From Syntrophomonadaceae bacterium (GTDB taxonomy: Bacteria; Bacillota; Syntrophomonadia; Syntrophomonadales; Syntrophomonadaceae): a DNA stretch of 24,000 nt. Shown piece by piece: positions 4,176-23,901 of the stretch. The notes under the pieces were generated by a model. It did no database searches, was not told where the DNA came from, and worked only from the letters and a program-made list of their open reading frames with translations. Position 1 is the stretch's first letter; the number at the start of each line of letters is the position of its first letter. The stretch lies in contig JAQWBP010000018.1 in assembly GCA_028706315.1 (NCBI GenBank), forward strand, positions 1-24,000, in the 5' to 3' direction. The position numbers and the translations under genes are program-made.

Positions 4176-5246
4176 TTGGATAGTCGTAAGTGGTTTATTC
4201 TATTAACAGGTCTGGCAGTTGGGGCTATAGCTGCTATACTTGTTAAGCTGGGTAATCCAGCAAATATGGGCTTTTGTATTGCCTGTTTTGAGAGGGATAT
4301 TGCCGGGGCAATAGGATTGCACCGGGCGGGAATAGTACAGTACATGCGTCCCGAAATTATTGGCCTTATTCTTGGAGCTATGCTTACTTCCATGTTTGCT
4401 GGTGAATTTAAGACTCGTGGCGGGTCGGCCACCTTTGTTCGTTTTATTATGGGTGTTTTTATGATGATTGGTGCCCTGGTTTTCCTGGGCTGCCCACTGC
4501 GTGACATTTTGAGAATGGCCGGGGGCGATTTTAACGCCGTAGTAGCCCTCATAGGCTTTATATGCGGAGTTGGTGCCGGTGTATTTTTCTTAAAAAAGGG
4601 CTTTAACCTGGGTAGAGCTGAATTCAGTCATTCCAATGCTGGCGGTTATTTATTACCGATAATTTTTGTCTTTTTTCTGTTCCTGCTCATAAAAGGAACC
4701 GTATTTAATCCTGACGCAGGAGGCCCTTTATTTTTCAGTACTGAAGGCCCAGGATCAATGGCAGCCCCACTGGGGATAGCACTTCTAGCCGGTCTTGTGG
4801 TCGGTTTCCTGGCTCAGCGTACCCGTCTATGCCTGAGCGGCGGAATTAGAGATTTTATCTTAATCAAAGACAATTATTTATTATTAGGCTTTATTGGCAT
4901 ATTTATTGGTGCTTTAATTCTAAATATAATTTTTGGTTTCTTCAAACCTGGTTTTGCTGATCAACCAGTAGCTCATACTATGCAGGTATGGAATTTCCTT
5001 GGCTTATTCCTAGTTGGCTTAACTGCCACATTGCTAGGGGGATGCCCACTCCGCCAGTTAATCTTATCAGGCGAAGGCGATATGGATGCTGCATCAGTTG
5101 TTGCAGGTATGACAGTCGGTGCAGCCTTCTGTCATAACTTTATGTTGGCAGGAAGCCCTGCCGGGGTAGGTATTTATGGCCAAATCGCCTGTGTAGTAGG
5201 TATTATATTAATGGGCTGGATTGGTTGGAGCTTTAGAGAGGATTAG
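4176..5246 (+). CDS. YeeE/YedE-family inner-membrane sulfur/selenium-compound transporter
   Basis: TTG start 8 nt after AGGGAGG. The product is a polytopic membrane protein with the family's conserved Cys motifs (GFCIACFERD, LGCPLRD, RLCLSGGIRD, GGCPLRQ). A TusA-like gene follows 14 nt downstream. Confidence 0.85.
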   Translation: MDSRKWFILLTGLAVGAIAAILVKLGNPANMGFCIACFERDIAGAIGLHRAGIVQYMRPEIIGLILGAMLTSMFAGEFKTRGGSATFVRFIMGVFMMIGALVFLGCPLRDILRMAGGDFNAVVALIGFICGVGAGVFFLKKGFNLGRAEFSHSNAGGYLLPIIFVFFLFLLIKGTVFNPDAGGPLFFSTEGPGSMAAPLGIALLAGLVVGFLAQRTRLCLSGGIRDFILIKDNYLLLGFIGIFIGALILNIIFGFFKPGFADQPVAHTMQVWNFLGLFLVGLTATLLGGCPLRQLILSGEGDMDAASVVAGMTVGAAFCHNFMLAGSPAGVGIYGQIACVVGIILMGWIGWSFRED

Positions 5247-6821: not shown

Positions 6822-6922
6822 TACCTTAGTATGCCTATTAAAGCTATGCAAAAGACTTGCTTACTGAAGGTGGAATAATACATTTATGATAAATAATGTT
6901 AACATTAATGGGAGGTGATAGT

Positions 6923-9040
6923 ATGAAATTAAGAGAAATGATGACCCCTAATCCCTTGACCTTAAGTCCAAACCAAAAAATTAGTGAGGCAGCAATTATT
7001 TTTATGGAAAATAAAGTGGATGGTGCTCCAGTACTAGATGAAAACCGTAAATTAGTAGGGCTTTTTACTAAGAGCCATATTTACCGTGTTATAAACAGCC
7101 ATATGGACATGAGTATGAAAGTTGAAGATTTAATGACCCGAGAAATTCTCACCGGACATCCTGATGATAAGTTTGATGAGGTGATAACCCCCCAGGTACC
7201 TCGACTGCCTGTAGTTGATGAAACAGGTGTAGTAGGGATGATTTGTCGTGGAGATATAGCCAAGGCTTTTTTTAATTCATATCGTAACATTTCTCTTGAA
7301 CTTGATACTATTATGAATTCCACCCACAATATGATTGTTTCAGTTGATGAGCAGGGAATGGTAAAGGTTTTTAACCGATCGGCTGAAAAACTACTTTGCA
7401 TAAAGGCAGCTGAAGTTATTGGGAAAAACATATTAGAGATACTTCCTAATAGTGGACTTATGGATGTAATTAATACTGGAAAGGTAGAACCATTACAGAA
7501 AGTGAAACTTAATGAACGCTTTTTTATATCTAACCGCTCTCCTATAAAAAAGGATGGTAAGATTATTGGCGCGGTAGCTGTCCTCCAGGATATATCTGAG
7601 ATTAATAAAATGTCTAAGGAACTGCGTTACGTTAAGGAATTGAATGAAGAACTGGATGCTATAGTTGAATCATCCTTTGATGGGCTTTTTATAACCGATG
7701 GTGATGGAAATATACTACGTTATAATAAGGCATTTGAGCAGCTAACAGGAATAAATGCACATGAATATAGGGGAAGAAGTGTAAGCGACATTAAAAATGA
7801 CGGAATTCTTACCGAACCTGTAACGTTTGATGTACTGAAACAAAAGAAAACTATTACGGTTATGCAAGAAAGCAGATATGGTAAGATTACTCTAACTACT
7901 GGTAATCCGGTAATTGATAAAAATGGAGATATAATAAGAGTTGTATGTAATGTAAGAGATATTACCGAGTTAAACATGTTAAAACAGAAACTTGAGCAGG
8001 TGCAGGGGCTAAGTCAGCACTATGAAAGCCAGCTTCGTACCCTAAAGTTGCAATATGATAATAGTGAAAAATTGGTATTCACTTCAACTAAGATGAAGAA
8101 TTTGGTAAGTATGGTCGTAAGGTTGGCAGTTGTGGACTCGACTATTTTAATAACTGGTGAATCGGGTACTGGCAAGGAACTAATTGCTGAGATAATACAT
8201 AACAATAGTTCACGTAAAGATAAGCCATTTATTAAGGTGAACTGCGGAGCTATTCCTGAAAACTTACTGGAGTCAGAGTTGTTTGGGTATGACAGAGGAG
8301 CATTTACTGGAGCCAGAAAAGAGGGCAAGCCAGGATATATTGAACTGGCTGCCGGAGGCACTTTACTACTAGACGAGATTGGCGAAGTGCCTCAAAACAT
8401 ACAAGTAAAACTTTTGCGATTTTTACAAAGTAAGGAAATTAGCAGAGTGGGTGGGAGGAGTTATAATAAAGTTGATGTTCGCATCTTAGCGGCTACAAAC
8501 AGGGATTTATTAGATATGGTGCAGCGCAATGAGTTTCGTGAAGACCTTTATTATAGATTAAATGTAGTGCCGGTGCATGTACCACCTCTGCGTGATAGGA
8601 AAGAAGATATCCCATCACTGATATCACATTTCCTGCAGTTATTCAACCGCAAATATAAAATGAATAAAAGAGTATTACCAGAAGTAGTTGATATTTTCAT
8701 GGAATATAATTGGCCGGGCAATGTTAGGGAACTGGAAAATCTTATTGAGAGATTAGTTGTGATTACACTCAACGAAATAATCAGTCGTGAAGATCTACCT
8801 TCCCATTTGGCGAAACCGCAAGATGAGAGCACTCCTTATGTGTTAGTTTCGGGCATAATTCCCCTACGGGCTGCTATTGAAAGTGTAGAGAAACAACTGC
8901 TAGAAAAAGTGTATGCGCAATTCAGAACTACTCGTCAGATGGCCAAGGAATTGGAAGTGGATGCATCTACGGTAGTTAGAAAGGCTGCGAAATATAATGT
9001 TTCGCAAGAGAAAAAAAATAAGAACAGGCAGCAACCGTAG
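6923..9040 (+). CDS. Sigma-54-dependent transcriptional activator (CBS pair, two PAS domains, AAA+ domain, Fis-type HTH)
   Basis: ATG at 6923 follows GGGAGGTG. The N-terminus has a CBS-pair pattern (MTPNPLTL...VDGAPVLDE...LPVVDE), followed by two PAS-like segments. The AAA+ core has GESGTGKE (Walker A), LLLDEIGE (Walker B), the sigma-54 contact loop GAFTGA and NVRELEN. The C-terminal HTH is TTRQMAKELEVDASTVVRK. Confidence 0.93.
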   Translation: MKLREMMTPNPLTLSPNQKISEAAIIFMENKVDGAPVLDENRKLVGLFTKSHIYRVINSHMDMSMKVEDLMTREILTGHPDDKFDEVITPQVPRLPVVDETGVVGMICRGDIAKAFFNSYRNISLELDTIMNSTHNMIVSVDEQGMVKVFNRSAEKLLCIKAAEVIGKNILEILPNSGLMDVINTGKVEPLQKVKLNERFFISNRSPIKKDGKIIGAVAVLQDISEINKMSKELRYVKELNEELDAIVESSFDGLFITDGDGNILRYNKAFEQLTGINAHEYRGRSVSDIKNDGILTEPVTFDVLKQKKTITVMQESRYGKITLTTGNPVIDKNGDIIRVVCNVRDITELNMLKQKLEQVQGLSQHYESQLRTLKLQYDNSEKLVFTSTKMKNLVSMVVRLAVVDSTILITGESGTGKELIAEIIHNNSSRKDKPFIKVNCGAIPENLLESELFGYDRGAFTGARKEGKPGYIELAAGGTLLLDEIGEVPQNIQVKLLRFLQSKEISRVGGRSYNKVDVRILAATNRDLLDMVQRNEFREDLYYRLNVVPVHVPPLRDRKEDIPSLISHFLQLFNRKYKMNKRVLPEVVDIFMEYNWPGNVRELENLIERLVVITLNEIISREDLPSHLAKPQDESTPYVLVSGIIPLRAAIESVEKQLLEKVYAQFRTTRQMAKELEVDASTVVRKAAKYNVSQEKKNKNRQQP

Positions 9041-9046
9041 TCTAGT

Positions 9047-9064
9047 TGTTGTTACCGCGCAACA
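9047..9064. promoter_or_regulatory. Candidate activator binding site 1 (TGTTG-N8-CAACA)
   Basis: TGTTGttaccgcgCAACA, a perfect 5-N8-5 inverted repeat 7 nt after the activator stop codon. It is one of five copies of the same motif within 9047-9299. Confidence 0.5.
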
Positions 9065-9101
9065 GAGGTAGCAAAAAGGCAACAAAAGGAAATTTTTTAT
9101 T

Positions 9102-9119
9102 TGTTGGCAAATCACAACT
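9102..9119. promoter_or_regulatory. Candidate activator binding site 2 (TGTTG-N8-CAACt)
   Basis: TGTTGgcaaatcaCAACT, the same motif with one mismatch in the last position. Confidence 0.45.
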
Positions 9120-9131
9120 TAAAATATATCG

Positions 9132-9169
9132 AAAAAAAGAGTAGTTTGGTTAAGTACTCTTTTTTTTTG
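9132..9169 (+). terminator. Putative terminator of the activator gene
   Basis: AAAAAAAGAGTA (9132-9143) pairs with TACTCTTTTTTT (9155-9166) and runs into a T9 tract. The A-tract/T-tract arrangement could act bidirectionally. Confidence 0.6.
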
Positions 9170-9224
9170 TGAATTAATAATCGAAAAGCAACTTAAATTG
9201 AATTATTAAAAAGGAGAATTACTT

Positions 9225-9266
9225 GGTGTTGTGAAAACACAACGCGCGTTGTGTTTTCACAACACC
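9225..9266. repeat. Perfect 42-bp palindrome containing two adjacent TGTTG-N8-CAAC(G/A) sites (candidate UAS core)
   Basis: GGTGTTGTGAAAACACAACGC|GCGTTGTGTTTTCACAACACC. The right half is the exact reverse complement of the left (checked base by base). Each half is itself a GTTGTG-N4-CACAAC inverted repeat. The two sites are at 9227-9244 and 9247-9264. Confidence 0.9.
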
Positions 9267-9281
9267 AAAAAGACGCCACTT

Positions 9282-9299
9282 TGTTGCACGGGTACAACA
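9282..9299. promoter_or_regulatory. Candidate activator binding site 5 (TGTTG-N8-CAACA)
   Basis: TGTTGcacgggtaCAACA, a perfect match to the repeated motif, about 90 bp upstream of the -24 element. Confidence 0.5.
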
Positions 9300-9387
9300 G
9301 CTGATTTAAGCAGGATAGTATATGACCCATCTGTTATTTGATTAAAACAGTACGGATATATGGGCACAGTAGCCGATTAAGATCATC

Positions 9388-9402
9388 TGGCATGAAAGTT
9401 GC
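9388..9402 (+). promoter_or_regulatory. Sigma-54 (-24/-12) promoter
   Basis: TGGCATGAAAGTTGC compared with the consensus TGGCACG-N4-TTGC. There is a single C-to-T deviation and correct spacing. It is oriented toward the mutase operon, downstream of an EBP gene and the repeated palindromic sites. Confidence 0.75.
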
Positions 9403-9473
9403 GTATATAAGTGTTAACGCTTGGGTTGAGTTTTTAAGTTTCCCGGGTTAAATTACCATTACTTTATTCCCCT

Positions 9474-9522
9474 TTCTACTATGTTGCTGTTCAATACAGT
9501 AACATAGTAAGAATCTTTTTTA
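9474..9522 (+). terminator. Terminator-like hairpin inside the 5' leader of the mutase operon (possible attenuator)
   Basis: 13-bp stem TACTATGTTGCTG (9477-9489) / CAGTAACATAGTA (9497-9509) with one G-U pair and a 7-nt loop. It extends by 3 bp across a 1-nt bulge (9474-9476 / 9511-9513). It is followed by TC plus TTTTTT (9516-9521). It lies between the sigma-54 promoter and the first start codon. Confidence 0.55.
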
Positions 9523-9635
9523 TTACTGTAACGGCAAAAAAATAAGATTAAGAAATCATTTTAAGGTTACTAAAGAAAACCTGAATCCTTCGCTAAAAGA
9601 TTGCTAAACTAAATTTCTCCACATTTACTATTGAA

Positions 9636-9663
9636 CGAATAGATGTAAGCTTACATCCATTCG
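9636..9663. other. 28-bp near-perfect palindrome in the leader, ~25 nt upstream of the RBS
   Basis: CGAATAGATGTAAG|CTTACATCCATTCG, 13 of 14 positions complementary and centred on AAGCTT. It could be an RNA hairpin or a protein binding site. Function unknown. Confidence 0.4.
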
Positions 9664-9700
9664 AACCAATAACAATTTCTTTCAAAGGGAGGTGAGAAGT

Positions 9701-10252
9701 TTGTCAGTAATGGAATCCACTGCAACCATGGCTAAACGGGGTCTAGTAATGGTAATTACGGGTAACGGTAAAGGTAAAACAACAGCTGCATTTGGTCAGG
9801 CCTTAAGGGCTGTTGGCCAGGGATACCGGGTATGCATAATTCAGTTTATGAAGGGACGCAAATATGGAGAGGTTTTAGCGATAGAAAAGCATCTTCCTGG
9901 TATTACGTTTTATCAATTTGGTCTGGATAGTTTTGTAATGCGGGATAATCCAGCTCCTGTGGATGTTGAATTGGCCCGGCAAGGTTTCGAAAAAGCAAAA
10001 GAAGTAATAGGTAGTGGAGAATATAACATGGTCATCCTGGATGAGATTAATGTTGCTGTTGATTTCAATCTAATTCCAGAGGAAGAAATGTTAAGTTTGA
10101 CTAGAAGTAAACCGGCTGAGCTAGATCTATTATTAACGGGTCGATATGCTTCAGATAAGTTGAAAGAGATAGCTGATTTAGTAAGTGAAGTTACCGAGAT
10201 AAAACACCATTATAATGCAGGTATTAAGGATCGAGCCGGGATAGAATACTAG
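9701..10252 (+). CDS. cobO: Cob(I)yrinic acid a,c-diamide / cob(I)alamin adenosyltransferase (CobA/CobO/BtuR family)
   Basis: Family pattern GNGKGKTTAAFGQALRAxGQG...QFMKG...ILDEIN...TGR. The GTG at 9692 overlaps the GGGAGG RBS, so TTG at 9701 (8-nt spacing) is preferred. ATG at 9710 is an alternative. Confidence 0.88.
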   Translation: MSVMESTATMAKRGLVMVITGNGKGKTTAAFGQALRAVGQGYRVCIIQFMKGRKYGEVLAIEKHLPGITFYQFGLDSFVMRDNPAPVDVELARQGFEKAKEVIGSGEYNMVILDEINVAVDFNLIPEEEMLSLTRSKPAELDLLLTGRYASDKLKEIADLVSEVTEIKHHYNAGIKDRAGIEY

Positions 10253-12022: not shown

Positions 12023-12427
12023 ATGTCAGATAGAAGAATTCGTATACTGCTAGCTAAACCCGGGCTTGATGGTCATGATCGTGGGGCTAGGGTACTGGCC
12101 AGATGTTTCCGCGATGCCGGTTTTGAGGTAATTTATACTGGTTGTCACCAAACTCCAGAGCAAATAGCTTCTGCTGCTGTTCAGGAAGATGTTGACGTTG
12201 TTGGCTTAAGCTGTTTGTCAGGTGCACATAAATATCTATTTCCTCAAGTAGCCAAGCTTTTACAGGATGAAGGAGCTGGCGATATTATGGTTATAGGGGG
12301 AGGAATAATTCCTGACCAGGATATGCAGGCTTTATATGAAGCTGGTCTAAAGGCAATTTTTACTCCGGGGGCCACCCTTGATTCATTGGTGGAATGGATA
12401 AATACAAATGTAAAACCAAGGGCGTGA
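12023..12427 (+). CDS. Acyl-CoA mutase small subunit (cobalamin-binding domain)
   Basis: GAAGGAGG RBS. The product begins RILLAKPGLDGHDRGA with the DxHxxG base-off/His-on motif, continues through VGLSxLSGAH and GGxIP, and is 134 aa long. Confidence 0.93.
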   Translation: MSDRRIRILLAKPGLDGHDRGARVLARCFRDAGFEVIYTGCHQTPEQIASAAVQEDVDVVGLSCLSGAHKYLFPQVAKLLQDEGAGDIMVIGGGIIPDQDMQALYEAGLKAIFTPGATLDSLVEWINTNVKPRA

Positions 12428-12432
12428 GCATT

Positions 12433-13407
12433 ATGAAAGAATTAGGCAAAAAGGTTTTGGCGGGAGACATTCGTGCGGCCTCCCGCCTCATAAGAAATCT
12501 GGAAGACCAAATACCTGAAACTAATATCGCAATGCGAGAAATTTTTGCCCATACCGGGAATTCCCATGTGATTGGGATTACCGGAGCACCGGGAGCCGGT
12601 AAAAGTACACTCACAGATGAGCTTATCGATGCTTACCGTAAGAAAGATAAGACTGTAGGAGTACTGGCTGTTGATCCGACCAGTCCTTTTACCGGGGGTG
12701 CACTTTTGGGAGACAGAATCCGTATGCTGCGGCATGCGGAGGACAAAGGTGTATTCGTAAGGAGCTTGGCAACAAGAGGTGCGATGGGTGGAATATCTAA
12801 GGCTGTCGGTGAAGGAATCCATGTAATGGACGTATTGAAAAAAGATAAAATAATAGTCGAAACTGTTGGCGTGGGGCAGCAAGAGGTAGAAATCATTAAT
12901 CATGCTCACACGGTAATAGTTGTTCTTGTACCAGGTATGGGGGATGAAATACAAGCTCTCAAAGCGGGCTTAATGGAAATAGCCGATATTTTTGTAATCA
13001 ATAAGGCGGATCGGGATGGTGCGGGGAAACTCTATAAGGAAACACTAAATATGGTGAAGATGTCTAAGGACATGGGGGATAATGGTAGTTGGACCATACC
13101 CGTACTTCTGGTAGAAAATGTCCTTGAACCAAATAAATTTGCTGAAAGTGTCAAAGCTTTAAGTGATAAGATAGACGAACATTATCAATATTTAGTTGAC
13201 AATAATCTTTTGTCTGAGCGCATGCGCCGTAAGACGGCAGCTGAGGTTAATGAGGCACTTTGGGGAAATATACTTCAACCAGTATTAAGTGATCTGCATT
13301 CACAGGGGGAAATGGAAAAGATGGTTGATAAAGTATTGAGCAGACAAACTGATCCATATACCCTGGCTGAAGAAATAGCTAGTAGGTACATTAAAAAGCA
13401 AGCGTAG
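12433..13407 (+). CDS. meaB: MeaB/ArgK-type G-protein metallochaperone for the mutase
   Basis: GITGAPGAGKSTL P-loop, VDPTSPFTGGALLGDR, ETVGVGQ and the NKADRDG (NKxD) motif. ATG at 12433 lies just after the small-subunit stop. The 12394 start in the ORF track would overlap the previous gene by 34 nt. GTG at 12424 is an alternative. Confidence 0.93.
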   Translation: MKELGKKVLAGDIRAASRLIRNLEDQIPETNIAMREIFAHTGNSHVIGITGAPGAGKSTLTDELIDAYRKKDKTVGVLAVDPTSPFTGGALLGDRIRMLRHAEDKGVFVRSLATRGAMGGISKAVGEGIHVMDVLKKDKIIVETVGVGQQEVEIINHAHTVIVVLVPGMGDEIQALKAGLMEIADIFVINKADRDGAGKLYKETLNMVKMSKDMGDNGSWTIPVLLVENVLEPNKFAESVKALSDKIDEHYQYLVDNNLLSERMRRKTAAEVNEALWGNILQPVLSDLHSQGEMEKMVDKVLSRQTDPYTLAEEIASRYIKKQA

Positions 13408-13547: not shown

Positions 13548-13588
13548 CTGCCAGAAAGGGAAAGAACTTGCCTTGACCTTTCTGGCAG
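13548..13588 (+). other. Perfect 12-bp stem hairpin without a U-tract in the meaB-crotonase intergenic region
   Basis: CTGCCAGAAAGG (13548-13559) / CCTTTCTGGCAG (13577-13588) with a 17-nt loop. The following sequence is GGTGATTGAG, so there is no T run. Confidence 0.5.
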
Positions 13589-13639: not shown

Positions 13640-14416
13640 ATGGGCAATGAGTCTATTTTAATGGAAAAGAAGGATCATATAGGGATAATTACTTTAAATC
13701 GCCCGAAACAACTAAACACTTTTAGTGCTCAATTTGCAGTTGAATTTAATAATGCTCTAAAAGAATTTGATCAAGATGAGGAAACCAGAGTTGTGATTAT
13801 TAAAGGTGCTGGAAAGGGTTTTTGCGCGGGGATAGATGTTTCAGAACTTGAGGGCAAAACTCCATTAGAATACTATAACTGGATTACATTAATGGAAGAT
13901 CCGCTTCTAACCATTTCTAAAATGGCTAAACCTGTAATTGCATCTGCGCATCACATTGCCGTAGCTAACGGTATTGGCATTGTTGCTGCATCAGATCTAG
14001 CGATAGCAGCTGAAGGCACGAGATTCGGTGCAACAGCTGTAAGCGTAGGCCTATTCTGTATGGGGCCAGCAGTTCCTTTATCACGTAGTTTGGGTAGAAA
14101 AAAAGCGCTGGAATTGTTATTGACTGGCGATATGATAGAAGCAAAAGAAGCGGAAAGAATTGGACTAATAAATAAGGTAGTTGCTCCTGATAAGCTAGAA
14201 GAAGAAACTGTGAAGTTAGCTAAAAAATTGGCAGCTAAGAGTCCACTAGGTGTTCAGTTGGGTAAAAAATCTTTCTACAAAATGTCAGATTTAGAATATG
14301 ATAAAGCATTTGAGTTAACTGCAAATCACTTTGCGCTATTGTGCACGACCGAAGATGCTCATGAAGGTGTGGATGCATTTTTAAATAAAAGAAAGCCAGG
14401 ATGGAAATTAAAATAG
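13640..14416 (+). CDS. Enoyl-CoA hydratase/isomerase (crotonase superfamily)
   Basis: AGAGGTG RBS. Crotonase pattern ITLNRPKQLN...IKGAGKGFCAGIDV...PVIASAHHIAVANG...LLLTGD...A...GLINKVV...EGVDAFLNKRKP. Confidence 0.9.
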   Translation: MGNESILMEKKDHIGIITLNRPKQLNTFSAQFAVEFNNALKEFDQDEETRVVIIKGAGKGFCAGIDVSELEGKTPLEYYNWITLMEDPLLTISKMAKPVIASAHHIAVANGIGIVAASDLAIAAEGTRFGATAVSVGLFCMGPAVPLSRSLGRKKALELLLTGDMIEAKEAERIGLINKVVAPDKLEEETVKLAKKLAAKSPLGVQLGKKSFYKMSDLEYDKAFELTANHFALLCTTEDAHEGVDAFLNKRKPGWKLK

Positions 14417-16515: not shown

Positions 16516-16560
16516 AATATAGCTTTATCTAACTTGAGATGCCTAAACTTAATATATTAT

Positions 16561-16730
16561 GTACAGCGGGTTCTTTGTGTAATGGCAAAGAACTAGGGAA
16601 CCAGGTGAAAAACCTGGACGGTCGCGCCACTGTAAGCGGGGAGCATGTTTCCACTTTGCCACTGGGCTTTAAGCCTGGGAAGGCGGAAACAGGCAAAGAG
16701 CCGCAAGTCAGGAAACCTAACCGTTGTGCC
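16561..16730 (+). promoter_or_regulatory. Cobalamin (B12) riboswitch aptamer
   Basis: Conserved cobalamin-riboswitch blocks appear in the correct order: AGGGAA, CCAGGTGAAAAACCTGG, GCGCCACTGTAAGCGGGGA, GCCACTGGG...CCTGGGAAGGCGG and the B12-box-like AGTCAGGAAACC. A candidate P1 pairs ACAGCGG (16563-16569) with CCGTTGT (16721-16727). A TTGAGA ... TATATTAT promoter-like stretch lies at 16534-16560. Confidence 0.9.
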
Positions 16731-16770
16731 GCACGTGATACCTTCGCAGGAAAGGAGGAGTGCTTACGTA

Positions 16771-16818
16771 AAGTAAAAGCTTCAACTTAACTGTAAAAAA
16801 GTTGAAGCTTTTACTTTT
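16771..16818 (+). terminator. Riboswitch expression-platform terminator
   Basis: Perfect 18-bp stem AAGTAAAAGCTTCAACTT (16771-16788) / AAGTTGAAGCTTTTACTT (16799-16816) with a 10-nt loop, ending in a TTTT run. Confidence 0.9.
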
Positions 16819-16961
16819 GAATACAAGTACAATTATGTTTTGTAGTAAAAATATTTGCTAAAGCCATAATAGAGGGAATTAGGGCGTAATATTGCTAAAA
16901 CCGAACTTGTAGAGTGATGAACGTGGAAATATAAGGTGATTTAAGGATTAGGAGTGATAAA

Positions 16962-19900
16962 GTGAAGAAAAAACTAAGTTTTTTAATAATAGTGACTTTT
17001 CTATTAACAGCTTTTTTTACTGTCCCTGTACTTGGGGCAGATAATCTATCAGTCGAAGATTCACTAAAAGAAATTGTTTCTTATTACGAAAATAGCAAAA
17101 CTACCTTAGATAATTGGGAGGAAGTAGTTGGATTAGCGAATGCTGATGTAGATTTATCGGCTGAACCATGGCAATTACCTGATTGGCAGGTGGATTCATT
17201 AAATGAAAATTCTAACCCCACAGAATATGCAAAAGTAATTTTAGGAATGCGGGCAGCTAAACAAGATTCAACAAATGTAAATGGCAGGAACCTTGTTAAT
17301 GAACTGGCTGCTAAACAAGAAGTAACTGGGAATTTTGGTGAGTATATTACCGATACTATATGGTCTATGGTTGCTTTGGATACAGCCGGTAAAACTTATG
17401 ATGTATCCGGTGCTGTAGATTACCTATTAAATAAGCAGACAAGTGATGGAGGATTTGCTTTTAGCGGAGACATAGCTGATCCGGATATGACTGGTTTTAC
17501 CTTAATTGCGCTTGCATCTCATATGAATGTGGAAAGTGTTAATGACGTTGTTTATCAGGCAGAAGAATGTTTGAAATCTATTCAATTAGACAGTGGCGGA
17601 TTTGGCTATGGTGGTGGTGATGCAGAAAATTCTGCGTCAAGTGCTGCTGTTATTAGAGGATTAGTTGCCTGTAATAAAGACATTACATCGTCTGAATGGA
17701 CTAAAAATGGTAATTCAATGATTGATGCTCTTTTTGAATTTCAATTACCTAATAAATCTTTTTCCCATCTAGGTAGCGAAACTAGTGACTTATCTACCAG
17801 ACAAGCTTTGATAGCTATTACTGAATTAATAAGTAATGGTTTTGGTAATTACATAATAAGTGGAACAGTTCCTGTTAGTGCTCCGGAGGAACCTACTGTT
17901 CAAATTGAGGTCACAGTTAGAGTAGAAGGATTAGAAGACACGGGTACGATATTGGACGAAACACTAGTAAACATAGATTCAGACAGCAGGGTCTTTGATG
18001 CCTTAAAGCAAGCATTAGATGATGCCGGGGTAAGTAATAGTATAAATACTGCAGCAGAGTGGTTATCAATAGATGATATTTCTATAGATACGGCGGCAGA
18101 GATAAGTGAAAATTTCTATTGGATGTATACGGTAAATGACAATTTAAACACAGATACTAATCCTGTGTTAAACCAGGGAGATGCCATAACTGTATATTTA
18201 ATAAAGTATCCTACCACTTTTTATGCAAAATTATCTCTAAGTAAAGAAGAAGTTAATAAGGGCGAAAAGGTAAAAGCAGTAGTAAACAAATCAGATGGAG
18301 GATGGCCAGCAAATTATATTCCTGCAGACGGAGTACAAGTACATTTTGGGGATGAAATCTATATCACAGATGAAAATGGTGAAGTTGAAGTTACTATACA
18401 GACTGCTGGAACATTCAAGGTATATGCTGATAAATATGACGAATCGGGAATACCAGGGATAGTAAAGACAGCAAGTAAGACGCTAGTAGTAAAGGAAAAT
18501 AGCTCTAATCCAGGATCTACAGAAACTGGTATAACTGTAAAAATTGCTATTTTAGGAAAACAGGGTAATCTATTATATGGTCCTGGCAGTGTAATTATTT
18601 CTAAGAATGACAGTTATGGGCAAACTGCAATGAGTGCACTGGATGCTACTAGCTTAAACTGGACGATTTCCAATACCTGGGATGGCTTAGTTACTGAAAT
18701 AGCAGGTGAAGAAAATGAAGGTATGAATGGGTGGATGTATTCAATTAATAATAATAGCGCTTGGGATGTTCCCCAAAATGCAAGTGTTTCTAACGGAGAT
18801 AAAGTTTTGTTCTGGTACAGTATGGATGCGATGGAAAAGGGGCCAACTTGGAACGATGTAGAAAATTTATCAAAGGGGAATTTAGAAAATACAACAAACG
18901 TAATTAAGGATGAAAAAAAAGTTAAAGAAAGGTTAACCAGCTATATTGAGGAAATTACAGCGTTGAGTAAAACCAAAGCTTTAAATGCAGACAACCAGAT
19001 GACCCAGAAAGAGGCCAATAAAATAAAATCAGAACTGGCAGATAACACAGTTAACCTGAGTAAAGAAGTAGGGAAAGCAGAGGCTGTAATAGCAGATACG
19101 GAAGTATCTATGCTGGTACCGGAAAATGCACTTTCACAGACTAAAAGTTTAACTATTAAAGAATTAGCTGCTAATAAAGAAACTCAACAGTTCGCGGTCA
19201 AATTAGGATCATCAATTTATGAATTTGGTCCCAGCGGAACAAAATTTGACAAACCAGTAACTATTAGTCTTGCAATAGCCATAACTGAGGATATGGATAT
19301 TGAAAATCTGACTCCGGCCTGGTATGACGAGGTCAACAAACAGTGGATTCCTATTCCGGGTGTTATAGATCTTAAAACAGGTTTAGTAGTATTTCAAATT
19401 GACCATTTTACTAAGTTTGCTGTAATTGATTTACCAGATATTTTACCGGAAATTTTACCAGAACTTTTACCAGACAGAGTCACTTTTACTGATGTAGGTG
19501 AGAATATATCTTGGGCCCAAGATGCCATAGAAATTCTGGCCGGGAAGGGAATTATTAATGGTACAGGGCAGGGATTGTTTGAACCACAAAGATGCATAAG
19601 CAGAGCAGAATTCGTTCAGCTGATAGTAACATCTCTACAACTAAAATCCGAAGAGTATGACGGCTTATTTAGCGATGTGGATTCTTCAAACTGGTTTGCA
19701 GGTGCCGTGGCAAGTGCATCAAATAATAAAATTGTCTCAGGATATCCTGAGGGTACTTTCAAGCCTAACAATAGTATAAGTAGAAACGAAGTTGCCAGCA
19801 TTTTTTATTATTTAGAAGGTACTAAAAAGAGTAGCAATGATGTTAACCTGGTTTTTTCCGATTTGGATAATATACCTAAATGGGCGGCAGATGGAGTTAA

Positions 19901-20027
19901 TTATGTTCATACACAGGGACTAATGCAGGGCTATGAAGATGAAACATTTAGAGGAAATGATCCATTAAGCAGAGCCGAAGCAGCTGTTGTTCTCTACAAA
20001 TACCTTAACTCTGTTTCCAGTATTTAA
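16962..20027 (+). CDS. Secreted, SLH-anchored multidomain protein: alpha/alpha-toroid (prenyltransferase-like) repeats, two DUF4430 (transcobalamin-like C-terminal) domains, Ig-like modules and three SLH domains
   Basis: GTG start 7 nt after AGGAG. Signal peptide MKKKLSFLIIVTFLLTAFFTVPVLGA. Repeats of the Q..DGGF type (NKQTSDGGFAF, IQLDSGGFGYG) span aa ~30-295. Two segments (aa ~315-413 and ~524-620) have the DUF4430 pattern (V.V.I.G....L........T..DAL........G....I.G......W.Y.VN......GD.V.F.Y). Three C-terminal SLH repeats begin FTDV..., FSDV... and FSDL... (aa ~840-1021). Confidence 0.9.
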   Translation: MKKKLSFLIIVTFLLTAFFTVPVLGADNLSVEDSLKEIVSYYENSKTTLDNWEEVVGLANADVDLSAEPWQLPDWQVDSLNENSNPTEYAKVILGMRAAKQDSTNVNGRNLVNELAAKQEVTGNFGEYITDTIWSMVALDTAGKTYDVSGAVDYLLNKQTSDGGFAFSGDIADPDMTGFTLIALASHMNVESVNDVVYQAEECLKSIQLDSGGFGYGGGDAENSASSAAVIRGLVACNKDITSSEWTKNGNSMIDALFEFQLPNKSFSHLGSETSDLSTRQALIAITELISNGFGNYIISGTVPVSAPEEPTVQIEVTVRVEGLEDTGTILDETLVNIDSDSRVFDALKQALDDAGVSNSINTAAEWLSIDDISIDTAAEISENFYWMYTVNDNLNTDTNPVLNQGDAITVYLIKYPTTFYAKLSLSKEEVNKGEKVKAVVNKSDGGWPANYIPADGVQVHFGDEIYITDENGEVEVTIQTAGTFKVYADKYDESGIPGIVKTASKTLVVKENSSNPGSTETGITVKIAILGKQGNLLYGPGSVIISKNDSYGQTAMSALDATSLNWTISNTWDGLVTEIAGEENEGMNGWMYSINNNSAWDVPQNASVSNGDKVLFWYSMDAMEKGPTWNDVENLSKGNLENTTNVIKDEKKVKERLTSYIEEITALSKTKALNADNQMTQKEANKIKSELADNTVNLSKEVGKAEAVIADTEVSMLVPENALSQTKSLTIKELAANKETQQFAVKLGSSIYEFGPSGTKFDKPVTISLAIAITEDMDIENLTPAWYDEVNKQWIPIPGVIDLKTGLVVFQIDHFTKFAVIDLPDILPEILPELLPDRVTFTDVGENISWAQDAIEILAGKGIINGTGQGLFEPQRCISRAEFVQLIVTSLQLKSEEYDGLFSDVDSSNWFAGAVASASNNKIVSGYPEGTFKPNNSISRNEVASIFYYLEGTKKSSNDVNLVFSDLDNIPKWAADGVNYVHTQGLMQGYEDETFRGNDPLSRAEAAVVLYKYLNSVSSI
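19428..19475 (+). repeat. Four tandem 12-bp repeats encoding a (D/E)(I/L)LP x4 linker
   Basis: GATTTACCAGAT ATTTTACCGGAA ATTTTACCAGAA CTTTTACCAGAC encodes DLPD ILPE ILPE LLPD. It lies in frame between the body of the protein and the SLH anchor. Confidence 0.9.
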
Positions 20028-20129
20028 CGAGAAAATAAATTTTTAATGCACTGCTGGTTCAGGTAAGCTACATAAGGCTGGGCTGGCAGTGCACATCCCG
20101 TTTCAATTTTATGGATAAGGGGGATAGCT

Positions 20130-21293
20130 GTGAAAAATAGATTATTATGCCTAGTATTGACCGTATTTTTAATATGGATGGCGGTTACCATTTCTGGTTG
20201 CAGCACTAATAAAACTAATGATAATAGCATATCTGTCAATGGCAGTTCTGTTACAACAGATAAAGCAAAGGGTAAAACTAATGATGAAAAAATTAAAATA
20301 GAAACACAAGAACAAGCGTCACAGGGAGAAAGTAAGGAAAATAAAGTTGATAATGAAAGAAATGCTATTACTCCAAGCCATGACAGTGTTGCGCAAAATA
20401 CATCTAATCAGGCTGGTAAAACAACTAGTACTAATGACATGGTAACTCTATTTATAACCAAAGATTTTGGGGTTCAAATTTTAGTTGAAAAACAGGTAGC
20501 AATTAACAAAAATTGGACAATTATTGATCTTCTAGCATCGGTTTCAGAAATAGATACTAAATGGAATGGCGGTTTTATAAATAGTATTGACGGACTGGAA
20601 TCTAATAACGGTGGTATGTCAGGCAAAAGATTCGACTGGTTTTACTATATAAATGGAATTTGTTCTGATGTAGGGGCTGCGGAATATGACTTGAAGGCTG
20701 GGGAAGTAGTTTGGTGGGATTATCATGACTGGAAAAGCATGGGATCTACTAATTCAGCAGTTATCGGCTGCTATCCGGAACCATTTGTGCGCGGTTACCG
20801 GGGTAAGATCGGAGCAACAACAGTTATGAGTTCCGCAGATAATCAGAGTCTAGCCACTGACCTGCAAAAAGCGCTGAAAGTGAAGGGAGTCCGTTCTGTT
20901 AATGTCAAGGAATTAGATAATAATGTACTGGAAAACAGACAGGTACCTACGATTGTTATAGGTACGTGGAATGAAGTTAAACAGCTTTCCTGGCTGGAAA
21001 AGTTTAATAATGCCTATAGAAAAACAGGTACCAGTGTTCATTTTACTGATAAAGGGTTAGAACTGCTGGATCATAGTGGAGCAGTAGCTCAGATGATTGA
21101 TAAAAGTGCTGGTGTTATAGTTGCTGCTGGATCAGGCCTGGGAGATACTAGTCCCCTCTGGATGCTTGTTGGTACTGATCAGGAAGGTTTAAAGCAGGTA
21201 GTAGATATACTAGTTAATAAACCGGAGGAAATTTCTAGATTATATAATGCGGCAGTAGTTTCAGGAAAAGTTATCAGATTGCCATTACAGTAA
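20130..21293 (+). CDS. Lipoprotein with a DUF4430 (transcobalamin-like) domain and an uncharacterised C-terminal domain
   Basis: GTG start after AAGGGGGA. The signal peptide has a lipobox (LIWMAVTISG-C, Cys24) and is followed by a low-complexity linker. A DUF4430-like segment spans aa ~105-201 (VTLFITKDFG...TIIDLL...GFINSIDGL...WFYYINGI...AGEVVWWDY). Confidence 0.8.
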   Translation: MKNRLLCLVLTVFLIWMAVTISGCSTNKTNDNSISVNGSSVTTDKAKGKTNDEKIKIETQEQASQGESKENKVDNERNAITPSHDSVAQNTSNQAGKTTSTNDMVTLFITKDFGVQILVEKQVAINKNWTIIDLLASVSEIDTKWNGGFINSIDGLESNNGGMSGKRFDWFYYINGICSDVGAAEYDLKAGEVVWWDYHDWKSMGSTNSAVIGCYPEPFVRGYRGKIGATTVMSSADNQSLATDLQKALKVKGVRSVNVKELDNNVLENRQVPTIVIGTWNEVKQLSWLEKFNNAYRKTGTSVHFTDKGLELLDHSGAVAQMIDKSAGVIVAAGSGLGDTSPLWMLVGTDQEGLKQVVDILVNKPEEISRLYNAAVVSGKVIRLPLQ

Positions 21294-21313
21294 AAAAGGA
21301 AGCGAAACAAATT

Positions 21314-22228
21314 ATGCTTGTGTATCGGGAGAAGGATAATTTAATTCATAAATTGCATCCCTTTACCATTGTAGCTTTTGTTGGAGTAGTTTTTATTTTA
21401 TCTTTGGTTCTTTCTCATCCTGTTTACCTGTTAGGCTTGTTTCTGGCAGTGGGAGTAGTTATTATTGCTGCTGGGCATCTCAAGGAATGGAAGGTTTATC
21501 TTAAGTTTAGCATTATTATGATAATAATAATTATGATTATCAATGCTATTTTTGCTCAGGTAGGAGAGACAGTATTATTCATAGGTCCGCGGATTCCTGT
21601 ATTAGGGAAGATTAAAATAACCATGGAAGCTTTAGCATTTGGGGCAGGGATGGGTGTACGGCTGCTGGTTATCATCAGTGCGTTCTGTCTTTATACTTAT
21701 GCAGTGCACCCGGATAAGGTGTTAAAACTATTTAGCAAATGGGGTAATAAGTCGGTTATTGTTATAACTTTATCTACCCGTCTACTTCCTCTAATGGTTG
21801 GGGATTATTTGAGAATAACCGAGGTACAGCGCTGTCGGGGAGTAAAATTAGATACTGGTAGATGGTGGGAACGTGCCAAAAATATACTACCAGTAGTTAG
21901 CGTAATTTTGATATCCTGCCTCGAGCGTTCCTTACAGTTGGCTGAATCTATGCATGCCCGCGGTTATGGTAGTGGGTTTAGAACCTATTATACTCGAGAA
22001 TTGTGGCGCCCCAGAGACTATATAATCCTTACGGCATTATTTATTAGTTTCATAACCGGGGTATGGGCTGCTTTGCAGGGTTGGTCTAATTATAGCTACT
22101 ATCCCCGGCTGTCGGTAATTAATCTGGGAGAAATAAAAGCAGCAAGTATTGTGGTATTAACATTAATGATTCCTGCCATTCTTAATTGGGGGTGGAAGAA
22201 ATGTCCGTTATTAAAATCAAAGATCTGA
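21314..22228 (+). CDS. ECF transporter transmembrane (T) component, CbiQ/EcfT family
   Basis: Polytopic membrane protein with the characteristic N-terminal LHKLHPFT and the two coupling-helix motifs (ITEVQRCRG and ESMHARGYGSG). Confidence 0.88.
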   Translation: MLVYREKDNLIHKLHPFTIVAFVGVVFILSLVLSHPVYLLGLFLAVGVVIIAAGHLKEWKVYLKFSIIMIIIIMIINAIFAQVGETVLFIGPRIPVLGKIKITMEALAFGAGMGVRLLVIISAFCLYTYAVHPDKVLKLFSKWGNKSVIVITLSTRLLPLMVGDYLRITEVQRCRGVKLDTGRWWERAKNILPVVSVILISCLERSLQLAESMHARGYGSGFRTYYTRELWRPRDYIILTALFISFITGVWAALQGWSNYSYYPRLSVINLGEIKAASIVVLTLMIPAILNWGWKKCPLLKSKI

Positions 22229-23901
22229 ATTATTGGTATCCCGATACCCAAAAGCCATCATTAGATAGAATTAATTTAGAAATTCCCGAGGGGCAGTTTG
22301 TTCTAGTAGTAGGGGGTTCCGGTAGTGGCAAGTCGACTTTGGTTCGTGCTATAGCTGGCTTGATTCCTGAATTTTATGGTGGCACTTATGGAGGAAAGGT
22401 TTATATAGATGATAATGAAGTCAAAGCAATTGATCGGCGTAGTCTGATTCAAGAGGTAGGAATGGTTTTTCAGAATCCGGAGAGCCAGTTGGTAATGACT
22501 AATGTAGAACAAGAGATAGCTTTTGGTTTGGAAAACCTAGGTTTACCTAACGGACTTATGAAACGCAGGGTGATGGAGGTTACCAGTGCTCTAGGCTTAT
22601 CAGATTACTTACATAGTTTTATTCCGGAATTATCAGGAGGACAAAAACAGAAAGTAGCTCTAGCTTCAGTTTTGGCCATGCAGCCGAATATACTTTTATT
22701 GGATGAACCTACTTCCCAGTTGGATCCTATTGCTGGTGAAGATATTTTAAACATGATAAGACGATTGAATGAGGAAAATGGTATTACGGTGGTTCTAATT
22801 GAGCAGCGTTTGGAAAGGTGTTTTCATCTGGCTGACAGGATACTAGTTATGGATAAAGGACAGATTGTTTATGACCATCATGCCCCGGAGGCGATAGCTC
22901 ACTGGGCAGTGAAAACCACTACTCCTTTTATACCCCCGCTGGTCCAATTGTTTGCCAGTATAGGATATCCGGAAATACCGGTAACAGTTAAGCAGGGAAG
23001 GCGTATTCTTAAATCCTATTATCTACCTAGCAATTTAAATGCACAAAGGTCAGTTACTTTAGCAAAAAAATCAGAAGTTATGGAAGTAAGCCGAGAAGAA
23101 TGCTTAGTGGATATTAAGAATCTCTGGTTTACTTACTCCAATGGTGAAGAAGTTCTAAAGAATATAAATCTTAAAATTAAGCCAGACGATTTTATGGTGT
23201 TAATGGGGGAAAATGGGGCTGGGAAAACCACTCTCATGAGAAATATAAACGGCTTGCTTAAACCTAGCAGAGGAAAGGTTAATGTTTTAGAAAAAGAGAC
23301 TAAAAATTTATCCGTAGAAGAACTTGCATCTGATGTTGCTTATCTATCCCAAGATCCTAATGATTACTTGTTCCTGCCTACTGTTCAAGAAGAACTTACT
23401 TTTACGTTAAATAACCTGGGTCTTGCAGATGACGGAATTAGTCAAGAAATTATGACCCAGCTAAAGCTAACTCCTCATGCAGAAGTAAATCCCCGGGATT
23501 TAAGCACCGGGGAACGCCAGAGAGTAGCCCTAGCTTCCGTTCTGGTAACCAGACCCAAATTACTATTACTGGACGAACCTACTCGCGGACTGGATTACCT
23601 TTTAAAAGATGAACTTGGGAAAATCCTGTTGCAGTTTCAGGCAGAAGGAACTGCCATTCTCATTATTACCCATGATGTGGAATTTGCTGCTGAATATGCT
23701 GAAAAGATTGTATTGATGGCTGACGGGACTATAATTGCTCAAGGAAACAAATATGAGATGCTTACCAACTCTACGTTTTATTCACCCCAGATTAGTAAGT
23801 TGTTCAATAATATAGCCGATGGCGTAGTAACAATTGATCAAGGTAAAGAGGTATTAAGGAAGATAATGGAATTCAATAAAAATGAAGTTCTTTCCGTTTA
23901 G
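22201..23901 (+). CDS. Fused tandem ABC ATPase of an ECF transporter (EcfA-EcfA', CbiO-like)
   Basis: Two complete nucleotide-binding domains. Walker A: GGSGSGKST and GENGAGKTT. Signature: LSGGQKQKV and LSTGERQRV. Walker B: LLLDEPTS and LLLDEPTRG. ATG at 22201 follows GGGGGTGG and overlaps the T-component gene by 28 nt. Confidence 0.95.
   Translation: MSVIKIKDLNYWYPDTQKPSLDRINLEIPEGQFVLVVGGSGSGKSTLVRAIAGLIPEFYGGTYGGKVYIDDNEVKAIDRRSLIQEVGMVFQNPESQLVMTNVEQEIAFGLENLGLPNGLMKRRVMEVTSALGLSDYLHSFIPELSGGQKQKVALASVLAMQPNILLLDEPTSQLDPIAGEDILNMIRRLNEENGITVVLIEQRLERCFHLADRILVMDKGQIVYDHHAPEAIAHWAVKTTTPFIPPLVQLFASIGYPEIPVTVKQGRRILKSYYLPSNLNAQRSVTLAKKSEVMEVSREECLVDIKNLWFTYSNGEEVLKNINLKIKPDDFMVLMGENGAGKTTLMRNINGLLKPSRGKVNVLEKETKNLSVEELASDVAYLSQDPNDYLFLPTVQEELTFTLNNLGLADDGISQEIMTQLKLTPHAEVNPRDLSTGERQRVALASVLVTRPKLLLLDEPTRGLDYLLKDELGKILLQFQAEGTAILIITHDVEFAAEYAEKIVLMADGTIIAQGNKYEMLTNSTFYSPQISKLFNNIADGVVTIDQGKEVLRKIMEFNKNEVLSV

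Follow-up and report, generated by a model that had tools for sequence, protein, structure and literature searches.

A candidate sigma-54 activation module upstream of a B12-dependent acyl-CoA mutase operon in a Syntrophomonadaceae bacterium

A 24,000-nucleotide stretch of DNA from a Syntrophomonadaceae bacterium (assembly GCA_028706315.1, contig JAQWBP010000018.1, positions 1 to 24,000; the whole stretch is called the window below) carries a gene for a sigma-54-type enhancer-binding protein (EBP), a cluster of palindromic sites, a -24/-12 promoter, and an operon for a B12-dependent acyl-CoA mutase. As judged from sequence, these parts very probably form a one-component sigma-54 activation module controlling the mutase operon. 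About 16 related bacteria keep the same arrangement of EBP gene, sites, sigma-54 promoter, and mutase operon. To our knowledge, almost nothing has been established about the regulation of catabolic genes in syntrophic fatty-acid oxidizers. The module offers a concrete regulator, motif, and promoter for an operon whose mutase would isomerize isobutyrate and, via an orthologue, the same for a Syntrophomonas wolfei beta-oxidation cluster that went undetected on butyrate and crotonate. New here are the target, which has not been reported before, and the definition of the motif, and both appear as part of a wider, undescribed regulon that this EBP family has in syntrophs and in Gram-positive sulfate-reducing bacteria. 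The parts of the module are the following, with the palindromic upstream activating sequences (UAS) listed without a strand.

6923 to 9040, plus strand: EBP gene, 705 amino acids (aa), encoding a CBS pair, PAS, PAS, an AAA+ sigma-54 interaction domain, and a C-terminal TyrR-type helix-turn-helix (HTH) domain, HTH_50
9047 to 9064: UAS site 1, TGTTGTTACCGCGCAACA, perfect, starting 7 bp past the EBP stop codon
9067 to 9084: possible weak site with two mismatches, 20 bp from site 1, suggestive, chance matches being common at two mismatches
9102 to 9119: UAS site 2, TGTTGGCAAATCACAACT, one mismatch, aligning with a perfect site in the closest relative, locus L068
9227 to 9244: UAS site 3, TGTTGTGAAAACACAACG, one mismatch, left arm of a 46-bp palindrome
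9247 to 9264: UAS site 4, CGTTGTGTTTTCACAACA, one mismatch, 20 bp (two helical turns) from site 3
9282 to 9299: UAS site 5, TGTTGCACGGGTACAACA, perfect, promoter-proximal
9332 to 9349: possible degenerate site, TGTTATTTGATTAAAACA, two symmetric mismatches, weak
9388 to 9402, plus strand: predicted sigma-54 (-24/-12) promoter, TGGCATGAAAGTTGC, with GG at 9389 to 9390 and GC at 9401 to 9402
9701 to 10252, plus strand: ATP:corrinoid adenosyltransferase of the CobA/CobO/BtuR type (cobO), operon gene 1, by Pfam and NCBIfam, start as annotated in locus L001
10314 to 11996, plus strand: acyl-CoA mutase large subunit, 560 aa, with a Phe/Gln/Ala signature, isobutyryl-CoA-mutase-like
12023 to 12427, plus strand: B12-binding small subunit, 134 aa, by profile matches
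12433 to 13407, plus strand: MeaB-type G-protein chaperone (meaB), by profile matches
13640 to 14416, plus strand: enoyl-CoA hydratase, at this position only in the window and in L068
14501 to 15541, plus strand: MtnA-like isomerase of the IF-2B family, closing the mutase operon in at least 13 related loci

The initial annotation of this DNA had described a CBS-PAS-PAS enhancer-binding protein whose gene ends at 9040, and the open reading frame (ORF) check gave the same end, with a start at ATG 6923 backed by a ribosome-binding site, GGGAGGTG, at 6910 to 6917. Pfam assigns the product two CBS domains, two PAS domains, Sigma54_activat (PF00158, E value 1.7e-69), an AAA lid, and HTH_50, the last at residues 657 to 703 of the 714-aa ORF (648 to 694 of the 705-aa protein). 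The translation contains the Walker A motif GESGTGKE, an intact GAFTGA loop, which is present in 118 of 120 homologues, and the Walker B motif LLLDEIGE (DEIGE). With a predicted AAA+ domain carrying GAFTGA, an HTH, and an N-terminal regulatory module, the protein has the features that define a bacterial enhancer-binding protein. Its sequence is a 100% match to an NCBI protein from a Syntrophomonadaceae metagenome-assembled genome (MAG; GCA_028686035.1, contig JAQUCV010000009.1).

Five copies of an 18-bp inverted repeat had also been noted, three of them perfect and two with one mismatch. Searching the window for TGTTG-N8-CAACA with at most one mismatch recovered all five, at 9047, 9102, 9227, 9247, and 9282, plus one match away from the cluster at 12864, but the count of perfect copies needed correction: two are perfect (9047 and 9282) and three have one mismatch. 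By chance, 0.73 matches would be expected in 24 kb, and 100 shuffled versions all gave fewer than six. The five clustered sites are packed in 253 bp, and sites 3 and 4 are the arms of a perfect 46-bp palindrome at 9223 to 9268. At the positions that the search left free, position 6 is C in 82 of 123 sites and position 13 is G in 91 of 123, so the motif extends to TGTTGC-N6-GCAACA. Rfam searches of the palindromes and of the long operon leader described below, at E <= 1, returned noise only, mostly microRNA hairpin models on the 46-bp palindrome.

Downstream of these sites, TGGCATGAAAGTTGC is the sole exact match to TGGCAY-N5-TTGC in the window (0.06 expected), in agreement with the sigma-54 consensus originally called at 9388 to 9402. 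The site centers lie 97, 132, 152, 277, and 332 bp upstream of the start of the -24 element. Over related loci, the centers are distributed bimodally, 80 to 120 bp and 220 to 360 bp upstream of the promoter, and the 97-bp position of site 5 is the modal one in the family. Transcription is predicted to start near 9413 to 9414. No sigma-70-like promoter was found on the plus strand between the EBP gene and cobO (9040 to 9700), an intergenic region of 660 bp.

Conservation of the arrangement was assessed by scanning species-representative genomes for the EBP, which yielded 59 loci (labeled L and a number). The order EBP, cobO, and mutase, with or without meaB and the mtnA-like gene, occurs in 14 of the 59 and in four further loci, representing three distinct places, from exact-protein look-ups; Desulfosporosinus HMP52 (L008) and Desulfotomaculum reducens (L064) have the same genes in a rearranged order. 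Fifteen loci, comprising the window and the fourteen with the EBP-cobO-mutase order, were aligned, and L068 and L069 were read by eye. All 15 have a promoter of the form TGG(C/T)A(T/C)-N5-TTGC and one to five palindromes in the intergenic region, and promoter and palindromes are kept likewise in the close relatives L061, L068, and L069. The usual layout places one site just past the EBP stop codon, where a site is kept in most related loci, and another about 95 to 115 bp upstream of the promoter.

The sites are concentrated upstream of -24/-12 matches. The intergenic regions of these loci hold 3.9 sites per kb, and the remainder of their DNA holds 0.074. In a wider scan of about 700 kb, covering loci whose EBPs are at least 56% identical to that of the window, 121 of 147 sites (82%) lie 40 to 450 bp upstream of a -24/-12 match. 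This zone makes up 4% of the DNA scanned and holds 4.25 sites per kb compared to 0.039 elsewhere, so the motif is roughly 110-fold enriched there.

The mutase itself is far better conserved than the EBP, with large subunits 84 to 96% identical across Syntrophomonadaceae, Desulfotomaculum, Desulfosporosinus, Pelosinus, “Candidatus Formimonas,” and some Clostridium. The mutase clusters of Clostridium, Pelosinus, and Formimonas (84 to 86% identical) have no linked EBP and no palindromes. Those of Clostridium and Formimonas contain zero -24/-12 matches, and in the Pelosinus cluster -24/-12-like matches occur only at implausible positions, one of them within a neighboring regulator gene. Other regulators are found near the mutase cluster in these bacteria, a MarR-like gene in Pelosinus and a LysR gene in Clostridium. 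Because these clusters lack it, sigma-54 control appears to be a lineage-specific wiring of a widely shared catabolic cassette.

Comparison of the EBPs themselves ties the sites to the protein. Three groups can be distinguished by identity to the window EBP.

Group A: 65 to 79% identity, mutase operon downstream, palindromes present
Group B: 58 to 66% identity, thl-hbd-crt-acd beta-oxidation operon downstream, palindromes present with the same motif and a -24/-12 promoter
Group C (paralogues): 46 to 50% identity, other operons downstream, palindromes absent

The HTH helices TTRQMAKEL and (D/N)-ASTVVRKAAKY are conserved in groups A and B, whereas group C has SCGKAANIL and DASTISRKASKY. Since the helices are common to the two groups with sites and different in the group without them, the sites follow the recognition helix. 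Together with the conservation of the arrangement in all related EBP-cobO-mutase loci and the position of the palindromes upstream of -24/-12 matches, this bears out the earlier proposal that sites, promoter, and EBP form one module. The domain that differs most between groups A and B is the CBS pair, with a mean identity to the window of 66% versus 50%. The window EBP occupies an S. wolfei-like chromosomal position (rimM-trmD-rplS-GTPase ... PGA_cap-EBP), yet its sequence and operon are those of group A.

Group B includes S. wolfei Goettingen and S. wolfei subsp. methylbutyratica. In S. wolfei (L063, CP000448.1, 10105 to 10555), the orthologue is followed by four palindromes and a -24/-12 promoter before thl-hbd-crt-acd, and a pair of these sites has the 20-bp spacing of sites 3 and 4 in the window. 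A published reconstruction of Clostridiales sigma-54 regulons (Nie, Dong and Yang 2019, PMC6615313) lists Swol_1487, Dred_1763, Slip_0282, and Desor_3516 as CBS-CBS-PAS-PAS EBPs; it assigns them no regulon, and its supplement nowhere contains the word “mutase.” Swol_1487 must be the S. wolfei orthologue found here, because it is the sole CBS-containing EBP listed for that organism, and the D. reducens orthologue could be Dred_1763 or Dred_1776. Products of the adjacent beta-oxidation genes, Swol_1483 to Swol_1486, were undetected on crotonate or butyrate in S. wolfei proteomics (PMC4324140). If our mapping of locus tags is right, their silence fits an activator-dependent promoter without its signal.

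Several genomes have a second -24/-12 promoter, mostly with sites of the same kind, before genes for C_GCAxxG_C_C, DUF6125, or M24-hydrolase proteins or before the EBP gene itself; upstream of the window's EBP gene no promoter of the -24/-12 type was found. Extra promoters before C_GCAxxG_C_C, DUF6125, or M24-hydrolase genes were seen in L061 (5689 to 7613), L064 (10456 to 13002), L008 (2170 to 3600), L003, L006, and L009. A creatinase-like M24 hydrolase gene also lies beside the mutase cluster in Pelosinus and Clostridium. The C_GCAxxG_C_C, DUF6125, and M24 proteins may belong to the mutase pathway. As a tentative extension, well short of our confidence in the module itself, the Swol_1487-type EBP family and its enhancer code TGTTGC-N6-GCAACA might form a substrate-specific master switch through which syntrophic Syntrophomonadaceae and Desulfotomaculum-type sulfate reducers control their catabolism of short- and branched-chain fatty acids. 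Such a switch would control isobutyryl-CoA mutase operons, the S. wolfei beta-oxidation cluster, and the C_GCAxxG_C_C/DUF6125/M24 genes, with the fast-diverging CBS pair reading an acyl-CoA or another adenosyl-containing ligand. In practice, TGTTGC-N6-GCAACA beside TGGCAY-N5-TTGC can be used to annotate the regulon in anaerobic-digester metagenomes.

From the parts, their statistics, their conservation, and the co-variation of sites with the recognition helix, we infer the following course of events. EBP dimers would bind TGTTGC-N6-GCAACA through the TyrR-type HTH, 97 to 332 bp upstream of the promoter. A signal at the CBS-pair/PAS/PAS sensor would lead the AAA+ domains to assemble, their GAFTGA loops would touch sigma-54 RNA polymerase parked at TGGCAT-N5-TTGC (9388 to 9402), and ATP hydrolysis would open the promoter. 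The transcript, beginning near 9413, would carry a leader of about 290 nucleotides (nt), cobO, the large and small mutase subunit genes, meaB, the enoyl-CoA hydratase gene, and the mtnA-like gene. The encoded proteins would adenosylate the cofactor, probably interconvert butyryl-CoA and isobutyryl-CoA with the help of the chaperone, and carry out the following step of beta-oxidation. This mechanism is the one established for bacterial enhancer-binding proteins. The switch is thus conventional and of a textbook type, and it leaves the understanding of how sigma-54 systems work unchanged while widening the range of sigma-54 targets by an acyl-CoA mutase operon.

The mutase assignment is based on the large subunit. 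Its best PDB match is 4R3U, the 2-hydroxyisobutyryl-CoA mutase (HCM) large subunit, followed by methylmalonyl-CoA mutases (MCM). Aligned to 1REQ and 4R3U, it has Phe at MCM Tyr89/HCM Ile90, Gln at MCM Arg207, and Ala at HCM Asp117. Phe with Gln, in the absence of the HCM Asp, is the isobutyryl-CoA mutase pattern, and the window enzyme is a probable isobutyryl-CoA mutase (butyryl-CoA/isobutyryl-CoA isomerase). HCM was considered because of the 4R3U match and set aside, since its hallmark Ile and Asp are replaced by Phe and Ala in the window enzyme. The gene content fits the split IcmA/IcmB type, as the large and small subunits are encoded separately and accompanied by a MeaB-type chaperone and an adenosyltransferase. 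The only isobutyryl-CoA mutase equivalog in the NCBIfam library is the fused IcmF, whose 1500-bit cutoff the window mutase does not reach. All of the 120 nearest homologues, 83 to 96% identical and from several Firmicutes families, share RMF(S/A)GM, the Gln, and the Ala. The invariance of RMF(S/A)GM suggests that the cassette spread recently, and it may have a substrate preference of its own.

What the sensor reads is where the main alternative lies. The signal would most likely be a pathway-related acid or acyl-CoA, or an adenosyl-containing ligand. It is also possible, although we consider it unlikely, that the module is real but its sensor reads the general energy or redox state, with adenine nucleotides at the CBS pair and redox at PAS, so that isobutyrate or butyrate would not induce the operon. 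Among solved structures, those nearest in sequence to the CBS pair include MJ1225, MJ0100, AcuB, and IMPDH Bateman modules, several of which bind adenosyl ligands. PAS1 is most like the cytoplasmic transmitter PAS of CitA and DcuS and not a known ligand-binding PAS, and the EBP family drives unrelated gene sets (mutase, beta-oxidation, and GCAxxG/DUF6125/M24). Structural relatives are compatible with an adenosyl ligand but identify none. However, divergence of the CBS pair beyond all other domains is easier to reconcile with distinct, specific ligands than with one nucleotide signal common to all, and the S. wolfei target operon was undetected in three growth conditions that differ in energy state.

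A second alternative concerns the leader of the transcript. In addition to the sites and promoter, the intergenic region contains two predicted elements.

9132 to 9168, plus strand: predicted EBP gene terminator between sites 2 and 3, an A/T-flanked hairpin followed by a T run, with a fold of -13.7 kcal/mol (z -4.4)
9414 to 9700, plus strand: predicted leader of about 290 nt, with a 17-bp hairpin at 9472 to 9513 followed by UCUUUUUUAUU (terminator-like) and a second hairpin at 9636 to 9663

A hairpin at the position matching the first element is found in L068 and L069. The leader departs from those of relatives: it is about 190 nt longer than the roughly 70 to 140 nt of 16 relatives, and the promoter lies 304 bp from the ORF start at GTG 9692 and 313 bp from the annotated cobO start at 9701, compared to 87 to 154 bp in relatives and about 125 bp in L068, whose mutase is 96% identical. 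The initial annotation was silent on both this distance and the terminator-like hairpin. The switch may be compromised in the window genome, the insertion with its intrinsic terminator yielding mainly an RNA of about 100 nt, so that the mutase is weakly expressed or depends on antitermination. The hairpin at 9472 to 9513 (-20.2 kcal/mol, z -7.5) runs into a U tract to 9523, and no other promoter was found between it and cobO. Nonetheless, we regard a compromised switch as improbable. Intact ORFs throughout the operon and good preservation of the promoter and upstream sites point to continued use; the stem, in which 4 of 14 counted pairs are G-C, is AT-rich; and no conserved antiterminator or known RNA family was found. 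The extra sequence folds well (z -3.0), has no match in related loci and no Rfam family, and may act as an attenuator or damper or be a neutral insertion. A search for a leader peptide gave no convincing small ORF in 9403 to 9700.

Very improbable, finally, is that the palindromes are operators of an unlinked factor, such as a fatty-acid or redox repressor, with the EBP binding elsewhere or acting from solution: they are ordinary 18-bp inverted repeats of a shape suited to many dimeric repressors, and they also occur before beta-oxidation genes, a class controlled in other Firmicutes by Rex- or FadR-type repressors, but the sites lie 80 to 360 bp upstream of the promoter without overlapping it, 82% of them precede -24/-12 matches, their presence tracks the EBP recognition helix, one abuts the EBP stop codon in most loci, mutase clusters without the EBP are also without sites, and the spacing of the motif is unlike that of the Rex box. 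The Rex box had been considered as site 3 contains TTGTGAAAACACAA; the family consensus is TGTTGC-N6-GCAACA.

Activation of the mutase operon by its adjacent EBP remains the best explanation, and several points weigh against it. The palindrome is shared by EBPs that drive different operons, and in some genomes at least two such EBPs occur (L003 and L004, from the same MAG; L028, with tandem EBPs; L006 and L043, from the same MAG), making cross-talk between paralogues that share the motif possible. Roughly 300 bp separate the promoter from the start codon, and some 60 to 100 nt into the leader sits a terminator-like hairpin (-20 kcal/mol and a U tract), so that a further factor may be required for read-through, or expression may be lowered. 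In the mutase, RMF(S/A)GM stands where the aligned MCM and HCM have RQ(Y/I)AGF. A tblastn search with an Escherichia coli RpoN query had no match in the related-loci DNA, which is a tiny part of each genome and makes that search uninformative.

Within the operon, the MtnA-like gene is a constant member, present in the window, L002, L009, L010, L013, L014, L017, L018, L040, L043, L045, L061, L068, and L069. One idea is that its product disposes of the 5'-deoxyadenosine-derived sugar from damaged adenosylcobalamin. An inverted repeat (CTGCCAGAAAGG at 13548 to 13559 and CCTTTCTGGCAG at 13577 to 13588) lies between meaB and the hydratase gene, is also present in L068 at about 5020 to 5070, and may form an intercistronic RNA stem-loop. 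This repeat explains a near match to a sigma-54 promoter before the hydratase gene, TGGCAGGGTGATTGA at 13583, which is the right arm of the conserved repeat, lacks the GC element, and was rejected as a second promoter.

Upstream of the EBP gene, the window encodes a DtxR-FeoA fusion, FeoB, a sulfur-transport protein, and a PGA_cap protein; compared to S. wolfei synteny, the DtxR-FeoA/feoB block is inserted between the ribosomal/GTPase genes and PGA_cap. Downstream of the operon, a riboswitch is followed at 16962 to 23901 by genes for two DUF4430 proteins, the first of them a 1,021-aa SLH/DUF4430 surface protein, and for CbiQ and a double ABC ATPase. The region from 16551 to 23901, directly behind the B12-dependent operon, probably encodes a system for B12 uptake. 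In L061, too, the mutase operon is followed by an SLH/DUF4430 gene.

211 to 981: iron-dependent repressor of the DtxR type fused to a C-terminal FeoA domain, upstream of feoB
16551 to 16738: cobalamin riboswitch, 116 bits

The gene set has a counterpart in the same bacterial family. In Syntrophothermus lipocalidus, a reported isobutyrate isomerizer, Slip_0757 to Slip_0760 have been named an isobutyryl-CoA mutase cluster (PMC5017805), and a butyrate-degrading Syntrophomonas MAG is reported to carry the gene set as well (PMC5017805, PMC6687939). Like the window operon, the S. lipocalidus cluster comprises an adenosyltransferase, large and small mutase subunits, and a MeaB-like protein. The Phe and Gln of the window mutase are likewise the residues expected of an isobutyryl-CoA mutase; those papers are silent on regulation, and the RMF(S/A)GM motif of the window mutase is distinctive.

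Control of such genes by sigma-54 was described at the outset as no characterized paradigm, and full-text literature searches turned up no publication dealing with control of acyl-CoA mutases by sigma-54 or with the EBP locus tags given above. OrdR is a partial precedent, because oraSE encodes a B12-dependent ornithine aminomutase. OrdR/sigma-54 control is predicted for the operon containing oraSE (PMC6615313), one of several one-component sigma-54 EBP regulons predicted in Clostridiales, including CrbR (crt-hbd-thl-bcd-etfAB), PrdR, and OrdR (ord-ortBA-oraSEF). The same work records SigL in S. wolfei (Swol_0265), S. lipocalidus (Slip_1854), and D. reducens (Dred_2992) (PMC6615313, Table S1). 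The window module resembles these regulons in having a cytoplasmic sensor EBP beside a catabolic operon, several palindromic UAS 40 to 350 bp upstream of a TTGGCAT-N5-TTGCT promoter, and a target in short-chain acyl-CoA or amino-acid catabolism. It differs from them in its sensor, a CBS pair with two PAS domains, and in its target, an acyl-CoA mutase operon.

Among individual regulators, CrbR, which controls butyryl-CoA synthesis genes in Clostridium, has the UAS TGTA-N8/9-TACA rather than TGTTGC-N6-GCAACA, and membership in the CrbR type was rejected on this difference. PrdR, the Clostridioides proline reductase activator, is the best-scoring NCBIfam equivalog (NF041552), but the match covers residues 237 to 692 of the window EBP, leaving the CBS pair and first PAS uncovered, and scores 527 bits against a cutoff of 795; its target operon is also different, and the window EBP was not assigned to it. 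The C-terminal HTH_50 is shared with TyrR/PhhR, and JGI annotates the window EBP as “TyrR family helix-turn-helix.” The TyrR box is TGTAAA-N6-TTTACA, and the window sites have the same 6-N6-6 palindromic form, starting with TGT and ending with ACA, although the half-site sequence is unlike. The sensor of TyrR is ACT-PAS, unlike the CBS-PAS-PAS of the window EBP. The TyrR of E. coli has lost its contact with sigma-54, whereas the window EBP keeps GAFTGA and stands at a -24/-12 promoter.

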